Of a stretch of 54,347 nucleotides of DNA, positions 9,548 through 40,213 are shown piece by piece. Numbering within the stretch: position 1 is the first letter of the stretch; every line of letters begins with the position of its first letter. Source of the stretch: a virus. Taxonomy: Duplodnaviria > Caudoviricetes. The translations under genes and the position numbers were made by a program. Below the pieces are notes generated by a model that had not been told where the DNA came from, searched no databases, and worked only from the letters and a program-made list of their open reading frames with translations. The stretch lies in the IMG/VR virus record IMGVR_UViG_3300032342_001249, positions 1 through 54,347 of that record. One strand, written 5' to 3'.

Positions 9548-9937
9548 TTGCAACGTCAGTGTATTGTATGCATGAAACAAAATGACGCAATGTACTATCA
9601 AGCGAACAAGAAAAAGTTGATTAAGCGTTACGTGCGACAACAAAAGAGTCGTGCTCAAAAATTTTACAATTTGTTTAAGCAGTATGCTTACTGTACGGTC
9701 TGTCAAGAACAAGATGTGTGTTGTTTGGACCTACATCATATTGACCCTAAACAAAAAGACTTTACAATTTCATCTGTTTTAAGAACCTATACATGGGAGC
9801 GAATTGTTGACGAAATGGAGAAATGTACCGTATTATGTCGTAATTGCCATTCAAAGGTTCATAAGTATGGTGAGGCGTTTGTCGCTCAAAAGACCCTAAA
9901 TCAAAATCTAGCAACAAAGTTTTTGAAGCTCGTATAG
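9548..9937 (+). CDS. HNH endonuclease (start uncertain); stop codon lies inside the downstream tRNA
   Basis: CxxC..CLDLHH.....KDFTI..KC.VLCRNCH.K.H. Confidence 0.8.
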   Translation: MQRQCIVCMKQNDAMYYQANKKKLIKRYVRQQKSRAQKFYNLFKQYAYCTVCQEQDVCCLDLHHIDPKQKDFTISSVLRTYTWERIVDEMEKCTVLCRNCHSKVHKYGEAFVAQKTLNQNLATKFLKLV

Positions 9938-10002
9938 TTCAGAGGTAGAACGGGGAATTCTAAATTCCTGCGTCGCGGGTTCGAGTCCTGCTGCGGGCAC
10001 CA
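9928..10002 (+). tRNA. tRNA with CUA anticodon (amber suppressor-type)
   Basis: GCTCGTA/TGCGGGC acceptor, GGGAA-TTCTAAA-TTCCT anticodon arm, GCGGG-TTCGAGT-CCTGC T arm, ACCA end. Confidence 0.85.
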
Positions 10003-11542: not shown

Positions 11543-13312
11543 ATGAAACAAGGCTTCATCATTGCTAAGAACAAGCAATCTAAGCTGTTCTTCAGCTCGC
11601 TCGGCTCTTACGACCGTCCTATTTGGACGGACAAATTAGAAGAAGCCGCATCATTTCACAGTGATTCAGTTGCTCATGCTTCAGTCAAGAAGCTATGGGA
11701 ACATCGTCATTGGTCATCAAAAGTTGTTGCTATTTCTGAACTAGAAGCATTTAGAATCGATCCAGCAACACATGACAAATTACCAATTGTGCCACAAGGT
11801 GAAACTGGTGACGCTGTATCTCCAGACGATGCTTCTGCGGATGTTGATTCACATTCTGAATATGCACCTGATGATGAACATGATGAACATGATGAACATG
11901 ATGAACATGATGAACATGATGAACATGATGAACATGATGATCCAGAAGATATGGATTCTGATCCAAACTCAAGTGAAAGCGAAACAGATCACATGGATTC
12001 TGATTCGTCTGATTCTATGGAAGATCAGCTCAGCGCAGATTCAACAGCTGATGAAGATAGTGATGTTGATGGTGATCAAGGCGATGAAGAATGTCCAACA
12101 TGTCATAAACATGCTGGTCAACATGAAGAAAATTGCGAAATGTCAATGCCTGTTGTTTCTCAAGAAGAAGAACACACACGTGGCGTGTTCAGGGATGGTG
12201 AGAAGGTAAAGTGGCACGGACATGATGCAGAAATCATCGGTCACCGTCGCGGTGAAACTGATTTTGTTGTTGTTCGTGTGGGTGGGCTTGACCGCAAAGT
12301 TCCGTACACGGAAATTACAAAAGTAACGGAATCAATTGAAGGTGTAAATCCACATATTGGTGCTCAAACAGCATCGGCTCATCCAGCCGGTGAACGTGCT
12401 GGACAGGCCCGCGCCGGAGAGCATGCCTGGTCAAATGCAAAACATGTATACGTATATCTCAATGGTCGCAAATACGATTTTGAAAATAATGCACCAGCTG
12501 CAATTCTGTTCATCAAGAAGTTAACTCCTGATGAACAGAAACTTGCAAAGATGGTTACAGAAAGTCCAGCATTAACTCTGACAAATCTTCCAGCCGGTGA
12601 ACGTGCTGGACAGGCCCGCGCCGGAGAGCATGCCTGGTCAGATCCATCGCAGGCAAAACATGTATGTGTATATCTCAATGGTCGCAAATACGATTTTAAA
12701 AACAATGCAGCTGAAGCTGTTCGATTCATGCAGAGGTTAACTCCTGATGAACAGAAACTTGCAAAGATGGTTACAGAAAGTCCAACGATGCCTAAGCGTC
12801 CTGGTAACGATCCTGCTCCACCACAAGAAAATAAGGATCTAATTCCAAACCTAACAAAACCAAAAGTTACAGACATTGGTTTTGATGATCCAGCTAATAT
12901 TCCTCACCCACCAGAAACCGATCTTACATACGCAACAGCGATGGCGCATGATGAAAAAGTAAAGATTCCTGGTAATGTGTTGGCAGCCTTGAAAGATAGT
13001 ATCAATGTGTTCCGTAAAGCAGCCGACTATAACAATAATCGTGATGATGCACAATCATCATTCTGTATGACAGTTACGGGTGCACTGGAAGAGCTTCACG
13101 ATCATATTAGTCAGGGTACAGTTGAAGGTCTTAAGCAAGCACAAATTAAGATGTCTTCTTGGATGAATCCAATTACAACAAACATTCCTGATGTTGTTCG
13201 TTTGTTTGTCGTTAATGGTGGACGCCAGCCAACATTGAAAGATATGTTTGACACTAAGCGTGGTGAAGCACTATTGAAGCGTGCATCCAAAGGCTTTGGA
13301 TATAAGGATTAA
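11543..13312 (+). CDS. Large acidic protein with low-complexity and duplicated segments, probable virion internal protein
   Basis: TATAAATA upstream; (HDE)n tract; internal ~62-aa duplication. Confidence 0.7.
   Translation: MKQGFIIAKNKQSKLFFSSLGSYDRPIWTDKLEEAASFHSDSVAHASVKKLWEHRHWSSKVVAISELEAFRIDPATHDKLPIVPQGETGDAVSPDDASADVDSHSEYAPDDEHDEHDEHDEHDEHDEHDEHDDPEDMDSDPNSSESETDHMDSDSSDSMEDQLSADSTADEDSDVDGDQGDEECPTCHKHAGQHEENCEMSMPVVSQEEEHTRGVFRDGEKVKWHGHDAEIIGHRRGETDFVVVRVGGLDRKVPYTEITKVTESIEGVNPHIGAQTASAHPAGERAGQARAGEHAWSNAKHVYVYLNGRKYDFENNAPAAILFIKKLTPDEQKLAKMVTESPALTLTNLPAGERAGQARAGEHAWSDPSQAKHVCVYLNGRKYDFKNNAAEAVRFMQRLTPDEQKLAKMVTESPTMPKRPGNDPAPPQENKDLIPNLTKPKVTDIGFDDPANIPHPPETDLTYATAMAHDEKVKIPGNVLAALKDSINVFRKAADYNNNRDDAQSSFCMTVTGALEELHDHISQGTVEGLKQAQIKMSSWMNPITTNIPDVVRLFVVNGGRQPTLKDMFDTKRGEALLKRASKGFGYKD
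11873..11940 (+). repeat. 9-bp tandem repeat GATGAACAT, about 7 copies, in frame (DEH)n
   Basis: Directly visible. Confidence 0.95.
12383..12784 (+). repeat. Two ~190-bp near-identical in-frame direct repeats (12383-12568, 12590-12784)
   Basis: ccagccggtgaacgtgctggacaggcccgcgccggagagcatgcctggtca ... gatggttacagaaagtcca occurs twice. Confidence 0.92.
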
Positions 13313-13471
13313 TTTGATGACACTTGATGAGATTGTAGTTGAGAAAAAGGTTCTAAAAGAAGGAACTGCACCACGTGCGACTTCACCCATGGCGAAGTCG
13401 TCAAACAAAGGAAAGCAGAAAACTACAAAACGAGCAAAAGCTCGTCGTGTTACTTTTCAATGGTCCGGCGG

Positions 13472-13500
13472 TTGATTTACTATAACAAATCACATATACT
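13472..13500 (+). promoter_or_regulatory. sigma70-like promoter
   Basis: TTGATT-17 nt-TATACT. Confidence 0.65.
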
Positions 13501-13598
13501 TACAAAATATTGAAACTTGACAGTTGGAAAGACAACGGCTACCCAAAGTGCTAATGGAGAGTGGTTGGATACATCCATTGAAATAGTTTCAAAAACTG

Positions 13599-13627
13599 TT
13601 GACCTCTTCTATAAATAGAGGTACAGT
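13599..13627 (+). promoter_or_regulatory. sigma70-like promoter with an embedded late-type TATAAATA
   Basis: TTGACC-17 nt-TACAGT; TATAAATA at 13610-13617. Confidence 0.6.
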
Positions 13628-13670
13628 AATTAAATATTTGCTTTACAAAATTTAACCGAAGGGTAATGAA

Positions 13671-13805
13671 ATGCAACATTGTCTACACCAACATAGCTGG
13701 CAACTGAGCGATAGTTCGCTCGGGCTGAGCTCTATGCGTTCATATCGATTTGAACGTGTTGAGCAGCCTAGCAGCTCCCTTCGTGGAGATGATCTGAGAG
13801 CATAA
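13671..13805 (+). CDS. Putative attenuator leader peptide, 44 aa (MQHCLHQHSWQLSDSSLGLSSMRSYRFERVEQPSSSLRGDDLRA)
   Basis: GAAGGG SD at 13658-13663; ORF contains a segment complementary to the terminator 5' arm; below the ORF-track length cutoff. Confidence 0.7.
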   Translation: MQHCLHQHSWQLSDSSLGLSSMRSYRFERVEQPSSSLRGDDLRA

Positions 13806-13829
13806 TTTCAGAAAATCAGAACAAACACG

Positions 13830-13867
13830 AAGGGCAGCTCCGGAAACGAAGCTGCCCTTTTTATTTG
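13830..13867 (+). terminator. Intrinsic terminator of the putative attenuator
   Basis: aagggcagct...agctgccctt followed by tttattt. Confidence 0.85.
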
Positions 13868-13877
13868 CTCTTTGATG

Positions 13878-14107
13878 TACGTCCAGATAGGAAACGAGAT
13901 CCTACTGTGGACGTAAAATATACAGGAATTGTCGGCGGCTAGGATGAAAGTACTGGCGTGAACAGTACGAGTAAAAGTAGTCACCACAGGGACAGCCTGT
14001 GGTAGAGTACGATAAGTATTCTAGAGGAACACTATAGAGGATGGTGGATTCCCGTATGGGGATTCACTGCTTAGTCTGCGGACAAAGGTCTTCTGTAGTG
14101 TTCTTAG
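13878..14107 (+). ncRNA. Multi-hairpin structured RNA between the attenuator and the first array tRNA
   Basis: tacgtcca/tggacgta, gtactg/cagtac, accacagg/cctgtggt, tagagtac/gtattcta, gaacactatagagga/tcttctgtagtgttc. Confidence 0.55.
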
Positions 14108-14124
14108 TGGATTTTCACTTCAAT

Positions 14125-14201
14125 GGTGGTCGTAGTGTAGTGGTTCTGCATACTTGGCTGTGAACCAGGGGGTACCGGATCGTAACCGGTCGATCACCCC
14201 A
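14125..14201 (+). tRNA. tRNA-His(GTG)
   Basis: G-1:C73, CTTGG-CTGTGAA-CCAGG, atypical T-loop ATCGTAA, CCA. Confidence 0.88.
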
Positions 14202-14241
14202 AGTTCAACTATAAATAAAGTTGAACTCAATAGGAAGTGAA

Positions 14242-14664
14242 ATGTCAGCAAAACGAAAAATTTGTACACAATGTAAGAAAGAGAAAGCTATCACAGAATA
14301 TCGCCGTGATAGACTGCGAACAGACGGTCGAAATTCAGCTTGTAAAGTTTGCATGCGAAGTTTGCAAAGTAAACGATATAAAGAACTTTATTCACAAACA
14401 AGAGCAACACGTGATAAAGCTCTTAGAGATGAAAATCGAAAGAAACTTGATGAAATTAAACGGTTTTGTGGATGTTCGTGTTGTGATGAAAAAGAACTTG
14501 TATGTTTGGAATTTCATCATCGCAATTCATCGCAAAAAGATTTTACAATTGGTCAAAATACTCACAGAACGTGGAATTATATTGAAAGTGAGATTTCAAA
14601 ATGTACGATTGTGTGTTCAAATTGTCATAAAAAGATTCATGCTGGCTTAGTGAAAATCCCCTAA
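14242..14664 (+). CDS. HNH endonuclease
   Basis: CxxC.....CLEFHH....KDFTI..KC.IVCSNCH.K.H; TATAAATA upstream. Confidence 0.85.
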   Translation: MSAKRKICTQCKKEKAITEYRRDRLRTDGRNSACKVCMRSLQSKRYKELYSQTRATRDKALRDENRKKLDEIKRFCGCSCCDEKELVCLEFHHRNSSQKDFTIGQNTHRTWNYIESEISKCTIVCSNCHKKIHAGLVKIP

Positions 14665-14684: not shown

Positions 14685-14759
14685 TGGAGAGTAGCTCAGA
14701 GAAAGAGCACCAGCAACTACGGCTGGATGTCGATGGTTTAAGTCCATCCTTTCCAACAA
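14685..14759 (+). ncRNA. Atypical tRNA-like RNA A (loop AACTACG, no D-loop GG, T-loop TTTAAGT)
   Basis: All four stems pair but conserved loop nucleotides are replaced. Confidence 0.65.
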
Positions 14760-15087: not shown

Positions 15088-15173
15088 GGGGTGTTAGCAT
15101 AGTCTGGCTTAATGCGCTTGCCTGTCACGTGTCACGCAAGAGATCACGAGTTCAAATCTCGTACATCCCGCCA
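15088..15173 (+). tRNA. tRNA-Asp(GTC) with 7-nt tandem duplication in the anticodon loop
   Basis: CTTGC-C(TGTCACG)(TGTCACG)-CAAG; the rest is canonical. Confidence 0.75.
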
Positions 15174-15175
15174 AT

Positions 15176-15250
15176 AGGAGAGTAGCTCAGATGCAAGAGC
15201 GCAGCCCACGGGGGCTGAGGTCGATGGTTTAAATCCATCCTCTCCTACCA
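15176..15250 (+). ncRNA. Atypical tRNA-like RNA B (no 7-nt anticodon loop), paralog of RNA A
   Basis: AGGAGAG/CTCTCCT-ACCA, cagccc-acgg-gggctg, T arm GATGG-TTTAAAT-CCATC. Confidence 0.65.
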
Positions 15251-27624: not shown

Positions 27625-30183
27625 ATGAAAAATCAGCTAGTTCGTCTTGCCGAGAAAGTTCTTGGCCACATGTCACACTATAGCGAAGGACACCATAAGG
27701 GTGGTGTCCTTTTAACTGGCGATCCAGGCGTGGGAAAAACAACATTTGTTGAAACACTTGCAAGCCTTCTAGGCATTCATGCTGTTGTTGTGGAAGTCCC
27801 CCACATTACTGAAGAGCATTTGATTAATATTCCGTTCATTGTGTTTAATCCACAGTCTAATTCCACCCAAACTGGTGTTCAGCAAATCACATCTGAATAT
27901 AAACTGGTATTGGCTCAGTCGAACCTGTACAATCAACTCGCTCATGCTCGTCCAATGGAAGATCATGCGTATATAGAGCATATCAAGCATTCTCCAAACT
28001 ACATCCAACAATTGTACAAAGCGTTCGGTGGAACAGAAACAAAAATTCCTGACGCATTCAAACAGGCACGTCAAACATATGGTGTGATTTTGTTTCTTGA
28101 CGAATACTATCGTCAAACATCCATGAGAATTCGAAATATTCTCCGTGGTATTTTGAACAATAAAATTGGAATGCATACAATTCCTGATAATGTGTATATC
28201 ATGTATGCATCAAATATGCGCGATCAGGGGTTGGAGAGTATTCCTCCAAATAATCAATTTACGGCTATCGATTATAAAACACCTCGTAAAGAGGACTGGT
28301 TTGATTGGCTCGTGGCTAAGTATCAAAATGATACGCACGTTCGTCTCAACGAAAATATCATTAAACATTTTAAAAAGTTGTTAAAAGATGAACACATGAG
28401 TTACGTTGATGTTGCAAAGGAAGTTCGCACGTCACCACGCCGCTGGGAACAACTTTTGTTGTACATTAATTCTGGCATTCCTGTACGTGACGAACAAGAT
28501 GCACGTGCGTTGATTACAAACGTTCGCAACAACTTTATTAATTATCAAACTGGTCAACATAGTGATTTAGCGGATAAAATTGTTGATGCAACGGCCAAAT
28601 TGATCAAAGAAACATCGAATGTTGATGTGAGTAGTAGCAATCTTCTTGAGCCACACGAGTGGCGTGAAGCGCTAAACCATCAAGTTGAGCAAGCAATGAA
28701 ACTTGGTGAACGTCGCAAGTACATTCCTGTTGTATCAGGACCTCCAGGAATTGGAAAAACAGCTCAAGCCGCCGCCGTTGCCGATAAACATAATCTGCGT
28801 TTGATTGAAATTGAAGTTAGCCAATTAAATCCAGATGATGTTGTAGGGTTACCGCTTCCTGGCGATCGCAAAGATGAAGAAATTGCCGTGAAATTCTCAG
28901 TACCTAAGCTGTATCGAGAAATTATGGATAAGATTAAGCACGCTGATGAAGCGTATATTGCTGACCTAAAGAAGAAGTATGGAACTGATGCAAACAAACA
29001 TATCAGTGCCTATATGGATCAGCGTTGGAAATATTTGATTTTCTTTGATGAAATCAACACAGTTGATGAAAAGACTTTTAATGCTCTGCGTCGTGTTATC
29101 TTAGAAAAAAACTTCGGTCCATCTGGTGACGAAAGTGGAAAACTTATTGAACTACCAAAGAGCGCTATTGTTGTTGCTGCTATGAATCCTCAAGGTAGTC
29201 ACACAACAGAAATGACACAGCATTTTAAAGATGTGGTTGATATTATTCCGGCGTCTGCTAGTTGGAAACAAACGAAACAGTGGCTTGGAGCTAAAAAATT
29301 CAAAGGAATCCCTGAAGAAGTTTCCACAGTTGCAATGAATGTTATGCAAGCGTTTGTTGATAAGTTCAAGGAAAAAGGTTCGGAACATTCTGCCGATCAA
29401 CGTCCATTTCACTTGGATGTGGGATCACCATTGTATATCTCTCCACGCGAATATACGGATATTTACGCAACATTGGTTCGTGAGTTGAATTCAGGAATTT
29501 CAAAAGTACTTAACGATGACTCAATTAAGGCTGATCAAATTCGTTCAGAGATTGATGATGTTATTGGTGAAGCATTGGAAGATTCATTGAATTTTATTTT
29601 CGACAAGCATGGAGTAGACAAGGAAGAATTCATGCATCAGTTGAAGGCATGGGTCTCTGCACTTGATGCAAGTATTTTAGGTGGCGTGTTGTCAAAGAAA
29701 GCTAAAACAACACCAATGGGACAAACATTGTCCAGCTATATGGATGGTAAAAACATCACAAACATGTCCGATGATATTGACATCATCAATGCCAACAATT
29801 CAGTCAACAATGCTCAATTCATTGAAGACGTTCGCGATATGATTGTATCTAAACTGAAAGATGATGCTTCAATTCAACAATATATTTTGAAAGAAGATCA
29901 GCCAAAAGTGACATTGAAAGGTGATACAATTACTACAGATCCAAGTACAAAAGTTTCATCTTTTGAGAACTTCATTCTTGCGTTGTTGTATACATTACAC
30001 ATTCACAAATATCAGAATGATCGCGTTGCATCTGTGGGACGAGCTTTGTCTTCTTCATTGTCAGAAACCATCAGCAAGTTGTTTAAAGCTAATAAAATTA
30101 CAGATGATGTCAAGGATGAAGTTGCAACATCAACAGTTCAACTGCGAAGCGATATCCACGATCTTCTCTCCAAATTGAAGTGA
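27625..30183 (+). CDS. Tandem AAA+ ATPase (MoxR/dynein-related type)
   Basis: Two Walker A (GDPGVGKT, GPPGIGKT), two Walker B (LFLDE, IFFDE), SPR motifs. Confidence 0.88.
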   Translation: MKNQLVRLAEKVLGHMSHYSEGHHKGGVLLTGDPGVGKTTFVETLASLLGIHAVVVEVPHITEEHLINIPFIVFNPQSNSTQTGVQQITSEYKLVLAQSNLYNQLAHARPMEDHAYIEHIKHSPNYIQQLYKAFGGTETKIPDAFKQARQTYGVILFLDEYYRQTSMRIRNILRGILNNKIGMHTIPDNVYIMYASNMRDQGLESIPPNNQFTAIDYKTPRKEDWFDWLVAKYQNDTHVRLNENIIKHFKKLLKDEHMSYVDVAKEVRTSPRRWEQLLLYINSGIPVRDEQDARALITNVRNNFINYQTGQHSDLADKIVDATAKLIKETSNVDVSSSNLLEPHEWREALNHQVEQAMKLGERRKYIPVVSGPPGIGKTAQAAAVADKHNLRLIEIEVSQLNPDDVVGLPLPGDRKDEEIAVKFSVPKLYREIMDKIKHADEAYIADLKKKYGTDANKHISAYMDQRWKYLIFFDEINTVDEKTFNALRRVILEKNFGPSGDESGKLIELPKSAIVVAAMNPQGSHTTEMTQHFKDVVDIIPASASWKQTKQWLGAKKFKGIPEEVSTVAMNVMQAFVDKFKEKGSEHSADQRPFHLDVGSPLYISPREYTDIYATLVRELNSGISKVLNDDSIKADQIRSEIDDVIGEALEDSLNFIFDKHGVDKEEFMHQLKAWVSALDASILGGVLSKKAKTTPMGQTLSSYMDGKNITNMSDDIDIINANNSVNNAQFIEDVRDMIVSKLKDDASIQQYILKEDQPKVTLKGDTITTDPSTKVSSFENFILALLYTLHIHKYQNDRVASVGRALSSSLSETISKLFKANKITDDVKDEVATSTVQLRSDIHDLLSKLK

Positions 30184-38781: not shown

Positions 38782-38830
38782 CTCAAGTGGATAGACTGCT
38801 TGAGGGTTAAAGCAAAGGAGCTTTGCTATG
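38782..38830 (+). promoter_or_regulatory. ATAGA-loop hairpin plus SD-containing hairpin upstream of nadV
   Basis: ctcaagtgg-ataga-ctgcttgag then agcaaag-gag-ctttgct-ATG. Confidence 0.55.
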
Positions 38831-40213
38831 AAATCGAATCTCATTCTCAATGGTATTCTCAATACCGACAGTTACAAACTTTCCCACTGGAAACAATACA
38901 AGCCGAATACAGCGACCGTTGTTTCATATATCGAATCCCGCGGTGGTTCATTCGACTATACCCAATTTTTTGGACTTCAGATTTACCTGAAAGAATATTT
39001 GTCTCAACGAATTACGCTGGAGATGATTGATCAGGCTGAAAAGATTGCACTTGCTCACGGTGAACCGTTCAATCGCGAGGGTTGGGAATACATCGTAACT
39101 ATTCACGAAGGTCGTCTACCACTTCGTGTCAAAGCAGTTCGTGAAGGTACGAATCTTCCAACCAAAAATGTTCTTGTGACAATTGAAAATACTGATCCGA
39201 AATGTTTTTGGTTGCCATCGTATGTCGAAACTGGTGCCCTACGAGCAGTATGGTATGGTACGACTGTGTCAACAATCAGCAAAAATATTAAGAAAGTTAT
39301 TGCTGAATACTTGGAAGAAACGGGTGATCCTTCTCTGATCAATTTCAAACTCCACGATTTTGGTGCACGTGGTGTTTCTTCAAAAGAAAGTGCTGGTATC
39401 GGTGGGGCAGCACACTTGGTTAATTTCATGGGTACGGATACAATTGAAGGTCTCCTGTATGCCATGGAATACTACAATACTTCTGAAGTTCCTGGTTACG
39501 GCATTCCAGCTGCCGAACACAGTACAATTACAGCATATGGTCGTGATGGTGAAGTTGACGCCTTTCGCAACATGCTTCAACAATTCGGCAAGAAAGGTGC
39601 ATTGTTTGCCGTTGTATCTGACAGCTATGACATCTACAACGCTGTTACTAATCTGTGGGGTGGAGAACTCAAACAGGAAGTAATTGACAGTGGTGCAACA
39701 TTGGTTGTTCGTCCTGACAGTGGACACCCGGCCTCGGTTGTACTCGAATGTGTGCATCGTCTTGATACAGCATTTGGTTCTGTGGTCAATGCCAAGGGTT
39801 ATCGAGTTCTCAATACTGTTCGTGTCATTCAAGGCGATGGCATCAACGAAGTGAGCATTCGTGAAATTCTGTTCACGTTGAAGATGCATGGGTATTCAGC
39901 TGACAACGTTGCGTTCGGTATGGGAGGCGCTCTCCTTCAACATATGAATCGTGACACATTGCAATTTGCTCAAAAAGCTTGTGCAATGTTGATCGACGGA
40001 AATTGGGTTGATATCTACAAGGATCCTGTTACCGATCCAGCCAAGAAGAGTAAACGTGGTCGGCTCGGATTGTACAAGAATGAGCAAGGTGAATATTACA
40101 CAGATCGTGAAGATCTGACAAAAGAAAGCCAACTTGTAACAGTTTTCGAAAATGGTACTATAACGAAGGAGTGGACGTTCGCTGAAGTACGTGAACAGGC
40201 CAACGCATCATGA
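38828..40213 (+). CDS. nadV: Nicotinamide phosphoribosyltransferase (Nampt)
   Basis: TDSYK.SH, LHDFGARG, PAAEHS, VSDSYD, VRPDSG, IQGDG, FGMGG. Confidence 0.95.
   Translation: MKSNLILNGILNTDSYKLSHWKQYKPNTATVVSYIESRGGSFDYTQFFGLQIYLKEYLSQRITLEMIDQAEKIALAHGEPFNREGWEYIVTIHEGRLPLRVKAVREGTNLPTKNVLVTIENTDPKCFWLPSYVETGALRAVWYGTTVSTISKNIKKVIAEYLEETGDPSLINFKLHDFGARGVSSKESAGIGGAAHLVNFMGTDTIEGLLYAMEYYNTSEVPGYGIPAAEHSTITAYGRDGEVDAFRNMLQQFGKKGALFAVVSDSYDIYNAVTNLWGGELKQEVIDSGATLVVRPDSGHPASVVLECVHRLDTAFGSVVNAKGYRVLNTVRVIQGDGINEVSIREILFTLKMHGYSADNVAFGMGGALLQHMNRDTLQFAQKACAMLIDGNWVDIYKDPVTDPAKKSKRGRLGLYKNEQGEYYTDREDLTKESQLVTVFENGTITKEWTFAEVREQANAS

Follow-up and report, generated by a model that had tools for sequence, protein, structure and literature searches.

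When and why phages use big arrays of transfer RNA (tRNA) genes is an old open question, and current ideas are codon supplementation and escape from tRNA-cleaving defences. The DNA analysed here (the window) is the entire IMG/VR viral record IMGVR_UViG_3300032342_001249, with a length of 54,347 bp, a completeness of 16% and a G+C content of 41.2%; the completeness points to a jumbo phage of about 340 kb. In this window a short open reading frame (ORF) with its own Shine-Dalgarno (SD) sequence is followed by a terminator and then by tRNA genes, which raises the question of whether transcription of these genes depends on translation of the ORF. Comparison with two related lineages indicates that the element is probably, though with much room for error, a trp-type, ribosome-dependent leader-peptide transcription attenuator that heads a phage tRNA unit and uses the SD as its segment 1.

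A preliminary description of this DNA, made from the letters of the window, had pointed to a promoter-like sequence, an SD with a 44-codon ORF, a strong terminator and a leader segment complementary to the 5' arm of that terminator. All four are found where it placed them (Table 1), and ViennaRNA folds the terminator on the plus strand in every model. The complement between 13777-13785 and 13826-13834 is perfect over 9 nt, and its extension with one bulge, as first proposed, is correct as well. Segment 2 reads CCCUUCGUG as RNA, and segment 4, GCCCUU, is the 3' arm of the terminator. The locus has the parts of an attenuator: a leader ORF with an SD, a terminator with no promoter-like site between it and tRNA-His, an exclusive antiterminator (2:3) and an anti-antiterminator (1:2). 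In a scan for terminator-like sites, which exceed chance as a class (30 against 14.6 +/- 3.3), the terminator was listed on the minus strand only, with 13 pairs, eight of them G-C, and the longest stem in the list for 9-28 kb; it was missed on the plus strand because a C.A mismatch makes the loop exceed the limit of the scan.

Table 1. Positions of the leader, the RNA segments, the downstream genes and the recurrent motif (window coordinates unless a relative is named)
Feature	Position	Strand	Remarks
Promoter region, sigma-70-like TTGACC-17-TACAGT	13599-13627	+	encloses invariant TATAAATAG (13610-13618)
SD, GAAGGG, doubling as segment 1	13658-13663	+	7 nt before AUG; GAAGG(G/A) in three of three lineages
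Leader ORF, 44 codons and UAA	13671-13805	+	single open frame in each lineage
Three-way folded core within the ORF	13696-13775	+	stem 13696-13699/13772-13775; hairpins 13706-13721 and 13722-13769 (long)
Segment 2, CCCTTCGTG	13777-13785	+	codons 36-39; invariant in three of three lineages; pairs with SD or segment 3
Segment 3, CACGAAGGGC	13826-13835	+	antiterminator partner; overlaps base of terminator 5' arm
Intrinsic terminator	13830-13867	+	13-bp stem with one mismatch, GAAA loop, U-tract 13860-13867
Strongly folded conserved RNA of unknown kind	13873-14125	+	z = -7.7; 0 of 200 shuffles as stable
Folded RNA in relatives	L002 8176-8359; L011 6050-6225		
tRNA-His(GUG), first gene past the terminator	14126-14201	+	same position in L002 (8360-8433) and L011 (6226-6298)
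TATAAATA copies	2619, 3512, 11509, 13610, 14210, 22270, 44360, 52602, 52651	+	exact motif
TATAAATA copy	9447	-	exact motif

Scans of viral, metagenome and genome contigs located the same unit in two relatives, L002 and L011, so the DNA comparison covers three lineages; L016 is a near-identical twin of L002 and is not counted separately. In all three the unit lies directly upstream of tRNA-His(GUG), and its mean column identity is 77%. The preliminary description had named the lack of a conserved ORF or of the alternative pairing in relatives as grounds for giving up its reading, and both turn out to be conserved. L002 and L011 keep the start context, a frame of 43-44 codons with indels of 3 nt, the stop position, the pairing of the SD with segment 2, the alternative pairing and the terminator with its antiterminator overlap. 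Blocks that are invariant in the three lineages are GTTGACC, TATAAATAG, the SD/AUG context, ACATAGCTGGC, CAGCCTA.CAGC.CCCTTCGTGGAG and ACAAACACGAAGGGC. A profile of the leader (nhmmer, 426 kb of sequence) finds one copy per record. Contigs from four DNA runs gave only fragments over 13480-14300, without variant letters.

GenBank phages give no DNA-level match, and a tblastn search of them with one peptide of the leader family gave no match at E <= 10. A match in L017 was rejected as chance similarity in a G+C-rich coding region. Rfam, Pfam and PHROGs hold no family for the leader or its peptide, and in the leader region the Rfam gathering threshold is reached by the tRNA alone. The closest named phage is Ralstonia phage RsoM2USA, with 43% identity over a protein of 600 amino acids; a profile of the 16 leader peptides described below has no match in its complete record.

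The case for a translated leader begins with the reading frame. In each lineage the leader ORF is the sole open frame of three, with lengths of 44, 44 and 43 codons (window, L002 and L011) and UAA as the stop throughout. When window and L011 are aligned without regard to codons, the gaps in the body of the ORF are 3, 3, 3 and 3 nt, and those in the tail are 2 and 1 nt. Substitutions at first, second and third codon positions number 5, 8 and 11 between window and L002 and 9, 6 and 14 between window and L011. The stop keeps its place: 17, 17 and 14 nt separate it from the end of segment 2, and 20, 21 and 23 nt from segment 3. Behind segment 2 each of the three lineages reads the homologous nucleotides GAYCTGR of the tail in a frame of its own. 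In these alignments it is thus the position of the leader tail that is conserved, not its peptide. A 13-codon ORF (13666-13707) starts at another AUG, out of frame and 5 nt ahead of that of the leader; it is not conserved, with ACG at its start position in L002.

The 2:3 complement is also rare by chance. When the upstream RNA of the window is shuffled with its dinucleotides preserved, 5 of 3000 shuffles reach the length of the complement; in the relatives the complement is 10 nt long and is reached in 1 of 3000 and 0 of 3000 shuffles. RNAalifold picked the 2:3 helix unprompted. The preliminary description had proposed to look for covariation in the antiterminator: the pairing is kept in all three lineages, but without covariation, because all nine pairs are invariant and covariation is silent either way. 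The helix between SD and segment 2 has 6-7 bp with 95% of its cells paired. In the terminator, three of ten counted pairs have changed on both sides, all in the upper stem, while the base shared with 2:3 and the ACAAACACGAAGGGC block are invariant in the three lineages; a frozen base below a covarying upper stem is what dual pairing of the base predicts. Within the folded core three pairs have changed on both sides and are still paired.

Folding of the transcript 13634-13875 is very stable (z = -5.6; none of 200 shuffles as stable). The minimum free energy (MFE) structure of the full length is the same in the three lineages, with 1:2 closing the three-way core and the terminator 3:4 behind it, whereas RNA truncated after segment 3 adopts 2:3 in each of them. 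A modelled ribosome placed on codon 8, 20 or 30 leaves 2:3 as the MFE structure as long as segment 4 has not been made. A ribosome placed on codon 35 or on the stop either covers segment 2 or has passed it, and of the two structures just the terminator then forms. In the 3' part, a fold with 2:3 imposed on it is less stable than the terminator fold by 5.4, 4.3 and 2.7 kcal/mol. The terminator is therefore the more stable of the two, and the choice between them must be kinetic, that is, set by the order of folding.

The leader peptide itself belongs to a small family. A word-indexed search of protein sequences gave three matches and their clusters two more members, and a HMMER pass over 1.84 billion representatives gave 11 matches at E <= 0.001. 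Together these yield 13 further peptide forms, of 43-51 amino acids after upstream starts were trimmed, and 16 distinct forms when the three translated loci are counted. In all 16 the stop lies 5-7 codons past the Arg/Cys codon of segment 2, and the tails behind it are unrelated in sequence. Residues G18, S21, R29, E31 and P33 are invariant, and gene callers have predicted the peptide in several assemblies. These two observations could mean that the 44-residue peptide is a functional small phage protein whose mRNA happens to be structured, with pairings that have no role of their own. The distribution of the conserved residues makes that improbable. The codons of G18, S21, E31 and P33 form the two strands of one helix and the variable residues 19-20 its internal loop, so that invariant residues coincide with paired nucleotides and variable ones with loop nucleotides. 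In the part encoded by segment 2 the replacements are confined to A to V (one form), L to F (one form) and R to C (three forms). The last two are chemically radical, yet pairing would be kept; each of the replacements can be explained by a single C to U change that would retain a G.U pair. The N-terminus and the tail vary freely, no Pfam or PHROG family matches the peptide, and codons 1-40 differ between window and L002 by about 11 non-synonymous against 5 synonymous codon changes, the synonymous ones being compensatory pairs within two hairpins.

Judged by these patterns, most of the constraint on the sequence lies on the RNA fold and not on the peptide, while frame, start and stop position are constrained separately, which is the pattern expected for a leader ORF. 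Nascent-peptide arrest of the TnaC type was considered and rejected: a ribosome arrested close to the conserved Pro would hide segment 2, and termination would be favoured.

Several observations weigh against the attenuator. The composition of the leader is mixed, rich in Ser, Gln, Leu and His, and there is no run of one regulatory codon. Substitutions alone leave the frame open in 29-39% of simulations, and the excess of third-position substitutions is mild; because substitutions alone so often keep a frame open, it is the indels, the position of the stop and the codon bias described below that carry the argument from the frame. The 13 additional peptides come from protein databases, in which lineages with a broken frame are invisible. 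Much of the apparent conservation of the peptide falls on paired nucleotides, and a folded non-coding RNA explains part of it. In the switch itself, five of the seven pairs of 1:2 and the nine of 2:3 never vary, and neither helix contains a pair altered on both sides. The terminator always wins at equilibrium, and 2:3 occupies just the lower 5-6 bp of its 13-bp stem. In RNA that ends at segment 3 and carries no ribosome, 2:3 is favoured over 1:2, a poor competitor as soon as segment 3 exists, and this makes the default state without translation ambiguous.

Past the terminator comes the folded RNA, which starts some 6, 39 and 6 nt from the end of the U-tract (window, L002 and L011). It has compensatory changes in 9 of 32 predicted pairs among the three lineages and no Rfam match at E <= 10 for 13873-14125. 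It is probably cargo of readthrough. The last hairpin of the window copy is enlarged by an additional insert of about 45 nt. The tRNA-His gene follows, and it would need readthrough because no promoter motif intervenes and the folded RNA of the window and of L011 begins about 6 nt past the U-tract. The absence of a promoter concerns consensus motifs that can be scanned for: there is no sigma-70-like site on the plus strand in 13627-14582 and no TATAAATA-like motif in 13618-14210.

Promoter-like hexamers as a class are at chance level in this region (43 found against 40.8 +/- 7.5 in shuffles). The site in front of the leader is set apart by GTTGACC and TATAAATAG, which are unchanged in the three lineages; the -10 hexamer deviates in L011. 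Exact TATAAATA occurs in eight further copies on the plus strand of the window, each before another gene and oriented with it, at a distance to the ATG of about 13-25 nt in the six clearest cases. It looks like a promoter motif of the phage's own and may resemble the late promoters of T4. One copy lies right behind tRNA-His in the window (14210), and the record of L011 has one in the same place. Because this second motif directly follows tRNA-His in two lineages, the switch is perhaps limited to the folded RNA and tRNA-His; the element may govern just these and not the whole array, which is a further limit on the attenuator reading. The TATAAATA motif at this place precedes an HNH endonuclease gene (14239-14664; phrog_2255, E = 1e-28), which stands between tRNA-His and the next tRNA.

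The same facts can be arranged differently, as a self-contained small gene with a promoter, a constitutive terminator and, as its product, the 240-nt RNA, the 44-residue peptide or both. Pairing of the SD with segment 2 would then just limit translation, 2:3 would be a folding intermediate or a by-product of the resemblance of segment 3 to the SD, and tRNA-His would be transcribed by leakage or from an unrecognised phage promoter. The very stable fold with its compensatory pairs inside the ORF agrees with such a gene, as do the strength of the terminator, which exceeds 2:3 in stability, and the sequestration of the SD in the MFE structure of all three lineages. Jumbo phages may also use promoters outside the models scanned, and attenuator RNAs and leader peptides can act in trans, as described for rnTrpL/peTrpL (PMC7968998, PMC7298713). 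A small gene leaves several things unexplained: the constant distance of the stop to segments 2 and 3 while sequence and frame of the tail drift, the frozen base of the terminator stem below a covarying top, and the fact that in two lineages the conserved folded RNA, with a tRNA after it, starts some 6 nt past the U-tract without an intervening promoter motif. A complement of 9-10 nt is also rare by chance. This explanation is therefore regarded as unlikely, but it deserves to be kept in mind.

Termination could also be governed by a factor that stabilises 2:3 or the core, be it an RNA (a tRNA, for instance) or an RNA-binding protein of phage or host, the ORF not being the sensor. Conservation of CAGCCTA.CAGC.CCCTTCGTGGAG and ACAAACACGAAGGGC well past the needs of pairing would suit such a factor, and so would the conserved three-way core. 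No T-box or other leader of Rfam reaches its threshold here, the best match apart from tRNA being L20_leader with 20.2 bits against a cut-off of 58.7. A factor gives no reason for the maintained frame, the 3-nt indels, the SD/AUG, the stop position and the frame-specific codon bias, and it is given little credence.

That codon bias leads to the second claim of the preliminary description, namely that the leader peptide mirrors the set of tRNAs encoded downstream. The window has 38 tRNA genes by ARAGORN, 36 of them downstream of the leader in an array at 14126-35920; the corresponding arrays of L002 and L011 have 24 and 27. As first described, ARAGORN finds no tRNA for Lys, Asn, Ala or Ile(GAU) in the window, and the one distal Thr (35839) stands. 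Amino acids for which no tRNA is found are A, I, K and N in the window, I, K, N and T in the record of L002 and A, I, K, N and T in that of L011. L002 has one Ala-UGC at about 220.7 kb, with its leader at about 16 kb. Lys, Asn and Ile(GAU) are thus missing from all three arrays, and Thr or Ala is at most distant. The five amino acids make up about 31% of codons in this genome of 41% G+C. The contigs are all partial (window 16%, L002 68% and L011 35% complete). The absent tRNAs could sit in unsampled parts of the genomes because RsoM2USA, of 343.8 kb and 41% G+C with a CUA suppressor, has 44 tRNAs for every amino acid but Ile according to its description (PMC8504454).

Within the window the composition of the leader is as first reported: 10 Ser with all six codons, 6 Leu with four codons and 5 Arg with three, no K, N, I or T, and Ala as the last codon only. 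Part of this carries over to the relatives. K/N/I/T/A codons number 6 of 111 in the frame of the ORF against 43 of 108 and 35 of 108 in the other frames of the same nucleotides, and a depletion so specific to one frame points to selection through translation. Across the 16 peptides, with each residue type counted once per alignment column, these amino acids make up 15 of 151 types (9.9%) through segment 2, the stretch in which a stalled ribosome would count, and 11 of 44 (25%) in the tail; uniform codons would give 24.6%. The shares of His and Gln are 12.9% and 21.7% in codons 2-16 and 3.0% and 4.4% in the long ORFs of the phage. Amino acids of the leader are covered by the tRNA set of their own record in 43 of 44 positions in the window (P <= 0.002 under three nulls), 41 of 44 in L002 (P 0.015-0.036) and 39 of 43 in L011 (P 0.007-0.019).

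On the other hand, the mirror is far from exact. Coverage at the codon level is 41 of 44 in the window (P <= 0.005), 27 of 44 in L002 (P 0.19-0.28) and 31 of 43 in L011 (P 0.06-0.12), and is thus significant in the window only. The leader of L002 contains N, T, T and A and that of L011 contains N, N, I and A. Immediately ahead of segment 2 the family most often has a Lys codon (8 of 16 forms), and Pro is rare in the leader despite several tRNA-Pro genes in the arrays. The lineages, moreover, are not independent samples. What remains of the claim is a frame-specific depletion of K/N/I/T/A ahead of segment 2 that matches the tRNAs missing from the arrays; the total absence of K, N, I and T is peculiar to the window, and codon-level matching does not extend to the other two lineages.

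As a special case of the attenuator, the leader might be a many-codon sensor of hungry codons that is tuned to the tRNA repertoire of the phage, a suggestion that is tentative and open to considerable doubt. Codons ahead of segment 2 would be almost only those for amino acids supplied by the array, avoiding Lys, Asn, Ile, Thr and Ala, and the leader, with tRNA-His as the first tRNA gene behind it, would contain many His codons. If tRNAs of the supplied kinds were depleted or cleaved, the slowed ribosome would cause replacement tRNAs to be transcribed, and restored translation would turn their transcription off. Induction by tRNA depletion or by anticodon nucleases is pure inference.

For the attenuator in general, the following course of events would account for the observations. 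Transcription from the promoter (TTGACC / TATAAATAG) would start an RNA of about 240 nt with four interacting segments. Under prompt translation the ribosome would cover segment 2 and then sit at the UAA, 2:3 would be blocked, hairpin 3:4 would form and transcription would stop at 13867. If the ribosome were delayed before about codon 30, segment 2 would be free as segment 3 emerges and 2:3 would form first. This would take up the base of the terminator stem, and the polymerase would continue into 13873-14125, tRNA-His and perhaps further tRNA genes. With no ribosome, the SD would pair with segment 2 around the three-way core and 3:4 would terminate. The net logic would be that slower translation gives more phage tRNA. 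We infer that the ORF is translated and that ribosome position decides termination, and likewise which codons matter and how far readthrough extends.

The array and its surroundings contain several further oddities. An ARAGORN call of Thr(UGU) at 15088 was rejected; the gene (15088-15173) is Asp-like, with a tandem duplication of its 7-nt anticodon loop. The tRNAs at 15176-15250 and at 545-619 of L050 have anticodon loops of 6 nt (or 8 nt) that ARAGORN cannot assign. Two tRNAs of G002, at 74597-74696 (+) and 27827-27925 (-) in L053/L054, have anticodon loops interrupted by hairpins of about 27 nt and are found by Rfam but missed by default ARAGORN; the second, on the opposite strand in the record of L011, may be an Ile(UAU). 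Suppressor-type tRNAs with a CUA anticodon, which ARAGORN labels 'Pyl', lie at 9928-10002 and 14685-14757; none of the three lineages has UAG as the stop of the leader ORF, which is UAA in each. Upstream of the leader, 11543-13312 encodes a large protein of about 590 amino acids with no Pfam family. It contains an acidic tract of DEH repeats and a duplicated internal stretch of about 70 amino acids, in which a block of about 28 residues recurs almost unchanged. It has 79% identity in L002 and is not upstream of the leader in L011. At 38828-40213 there is a nicotinamide phosphoribosyltransferase gene (Pfam NAPRTase, E = 1e-60; also NAMPT_N).

If the attenuator is real, it would be the first regulatory link from translation stress to viral tRNA supply, and it would extend leader-peptide attenuation from amino-acid operons to RNA genes. 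If the leader is also a tuned sensor, it would form a homeostatic, defence-responsive feedback loop on that supply. The element is small, self-contained and conserved, and it draws attention to a second conserved folded RNA that would belong to the regulated cargo. Reports of phage tRNAs as counter-defence or codon supplements (PMC10264068, PMC11555353, PMC11464382) offer a reason why a phage might increase its own tRNA supply, namely host tRNAs that are cleaved or limiting; they appear to concern the function of phage tRNAs and not a cis switch of their transcription. In the open-access literature, outside of which most subscription journals lie, no attenuator before tRNA genes was found for phages or bacteria.

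Among known systems, T-box leaders likewise use a terminator/antiterminator switch to couple genes for translation functions to the state of the tRNA pool. In the phage element a ribosome on an ORF would act as the sensor and the cargo would be a tRNA gene, where theirs is a synthetase; the region 13450-14230 has no T-box match in Rfam at E <= 10, and no specifier loop or T-box sequence was detected in it. Sinorhizobium rnTrpL/peTrpL shares the terminated RNA and the leader peptide as potential products, but the sequences are unrelated and nothing in the phage comparison points to a trans target.

A leader of the enterobacterial kind offers the fuller comparison. The trp, his, leu, thr and pheA attenuators (pheL: PMC3082878) share with the phage element a short ORF in the 5' leader, putatively translated in the phage, and overlapping 1:2, 2:3 and 3:4 pairings. 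Shared too are a terminator more stable than the antiterminator, a choice decided by folding order, and a stop placed so that a terminating ribosome would prevent 2:3. In the phage, segment 1 is the SD, whereas in the enterobacterial leaders it is part of the coding region, and the stop lies 3' of segment 2, where theirs comes before it. The phage leader has 43-51 codons without a run of a single codon, and the three-way core fills most of the ORF. The trp attenuation model is the textbook case of a leader-peptide transcription attenuator. The cargo of the enterobacterial leaders consists of biosynthetic enzymes, and that of the phage would be RNA genes, a folded RNA and tRNA-His.

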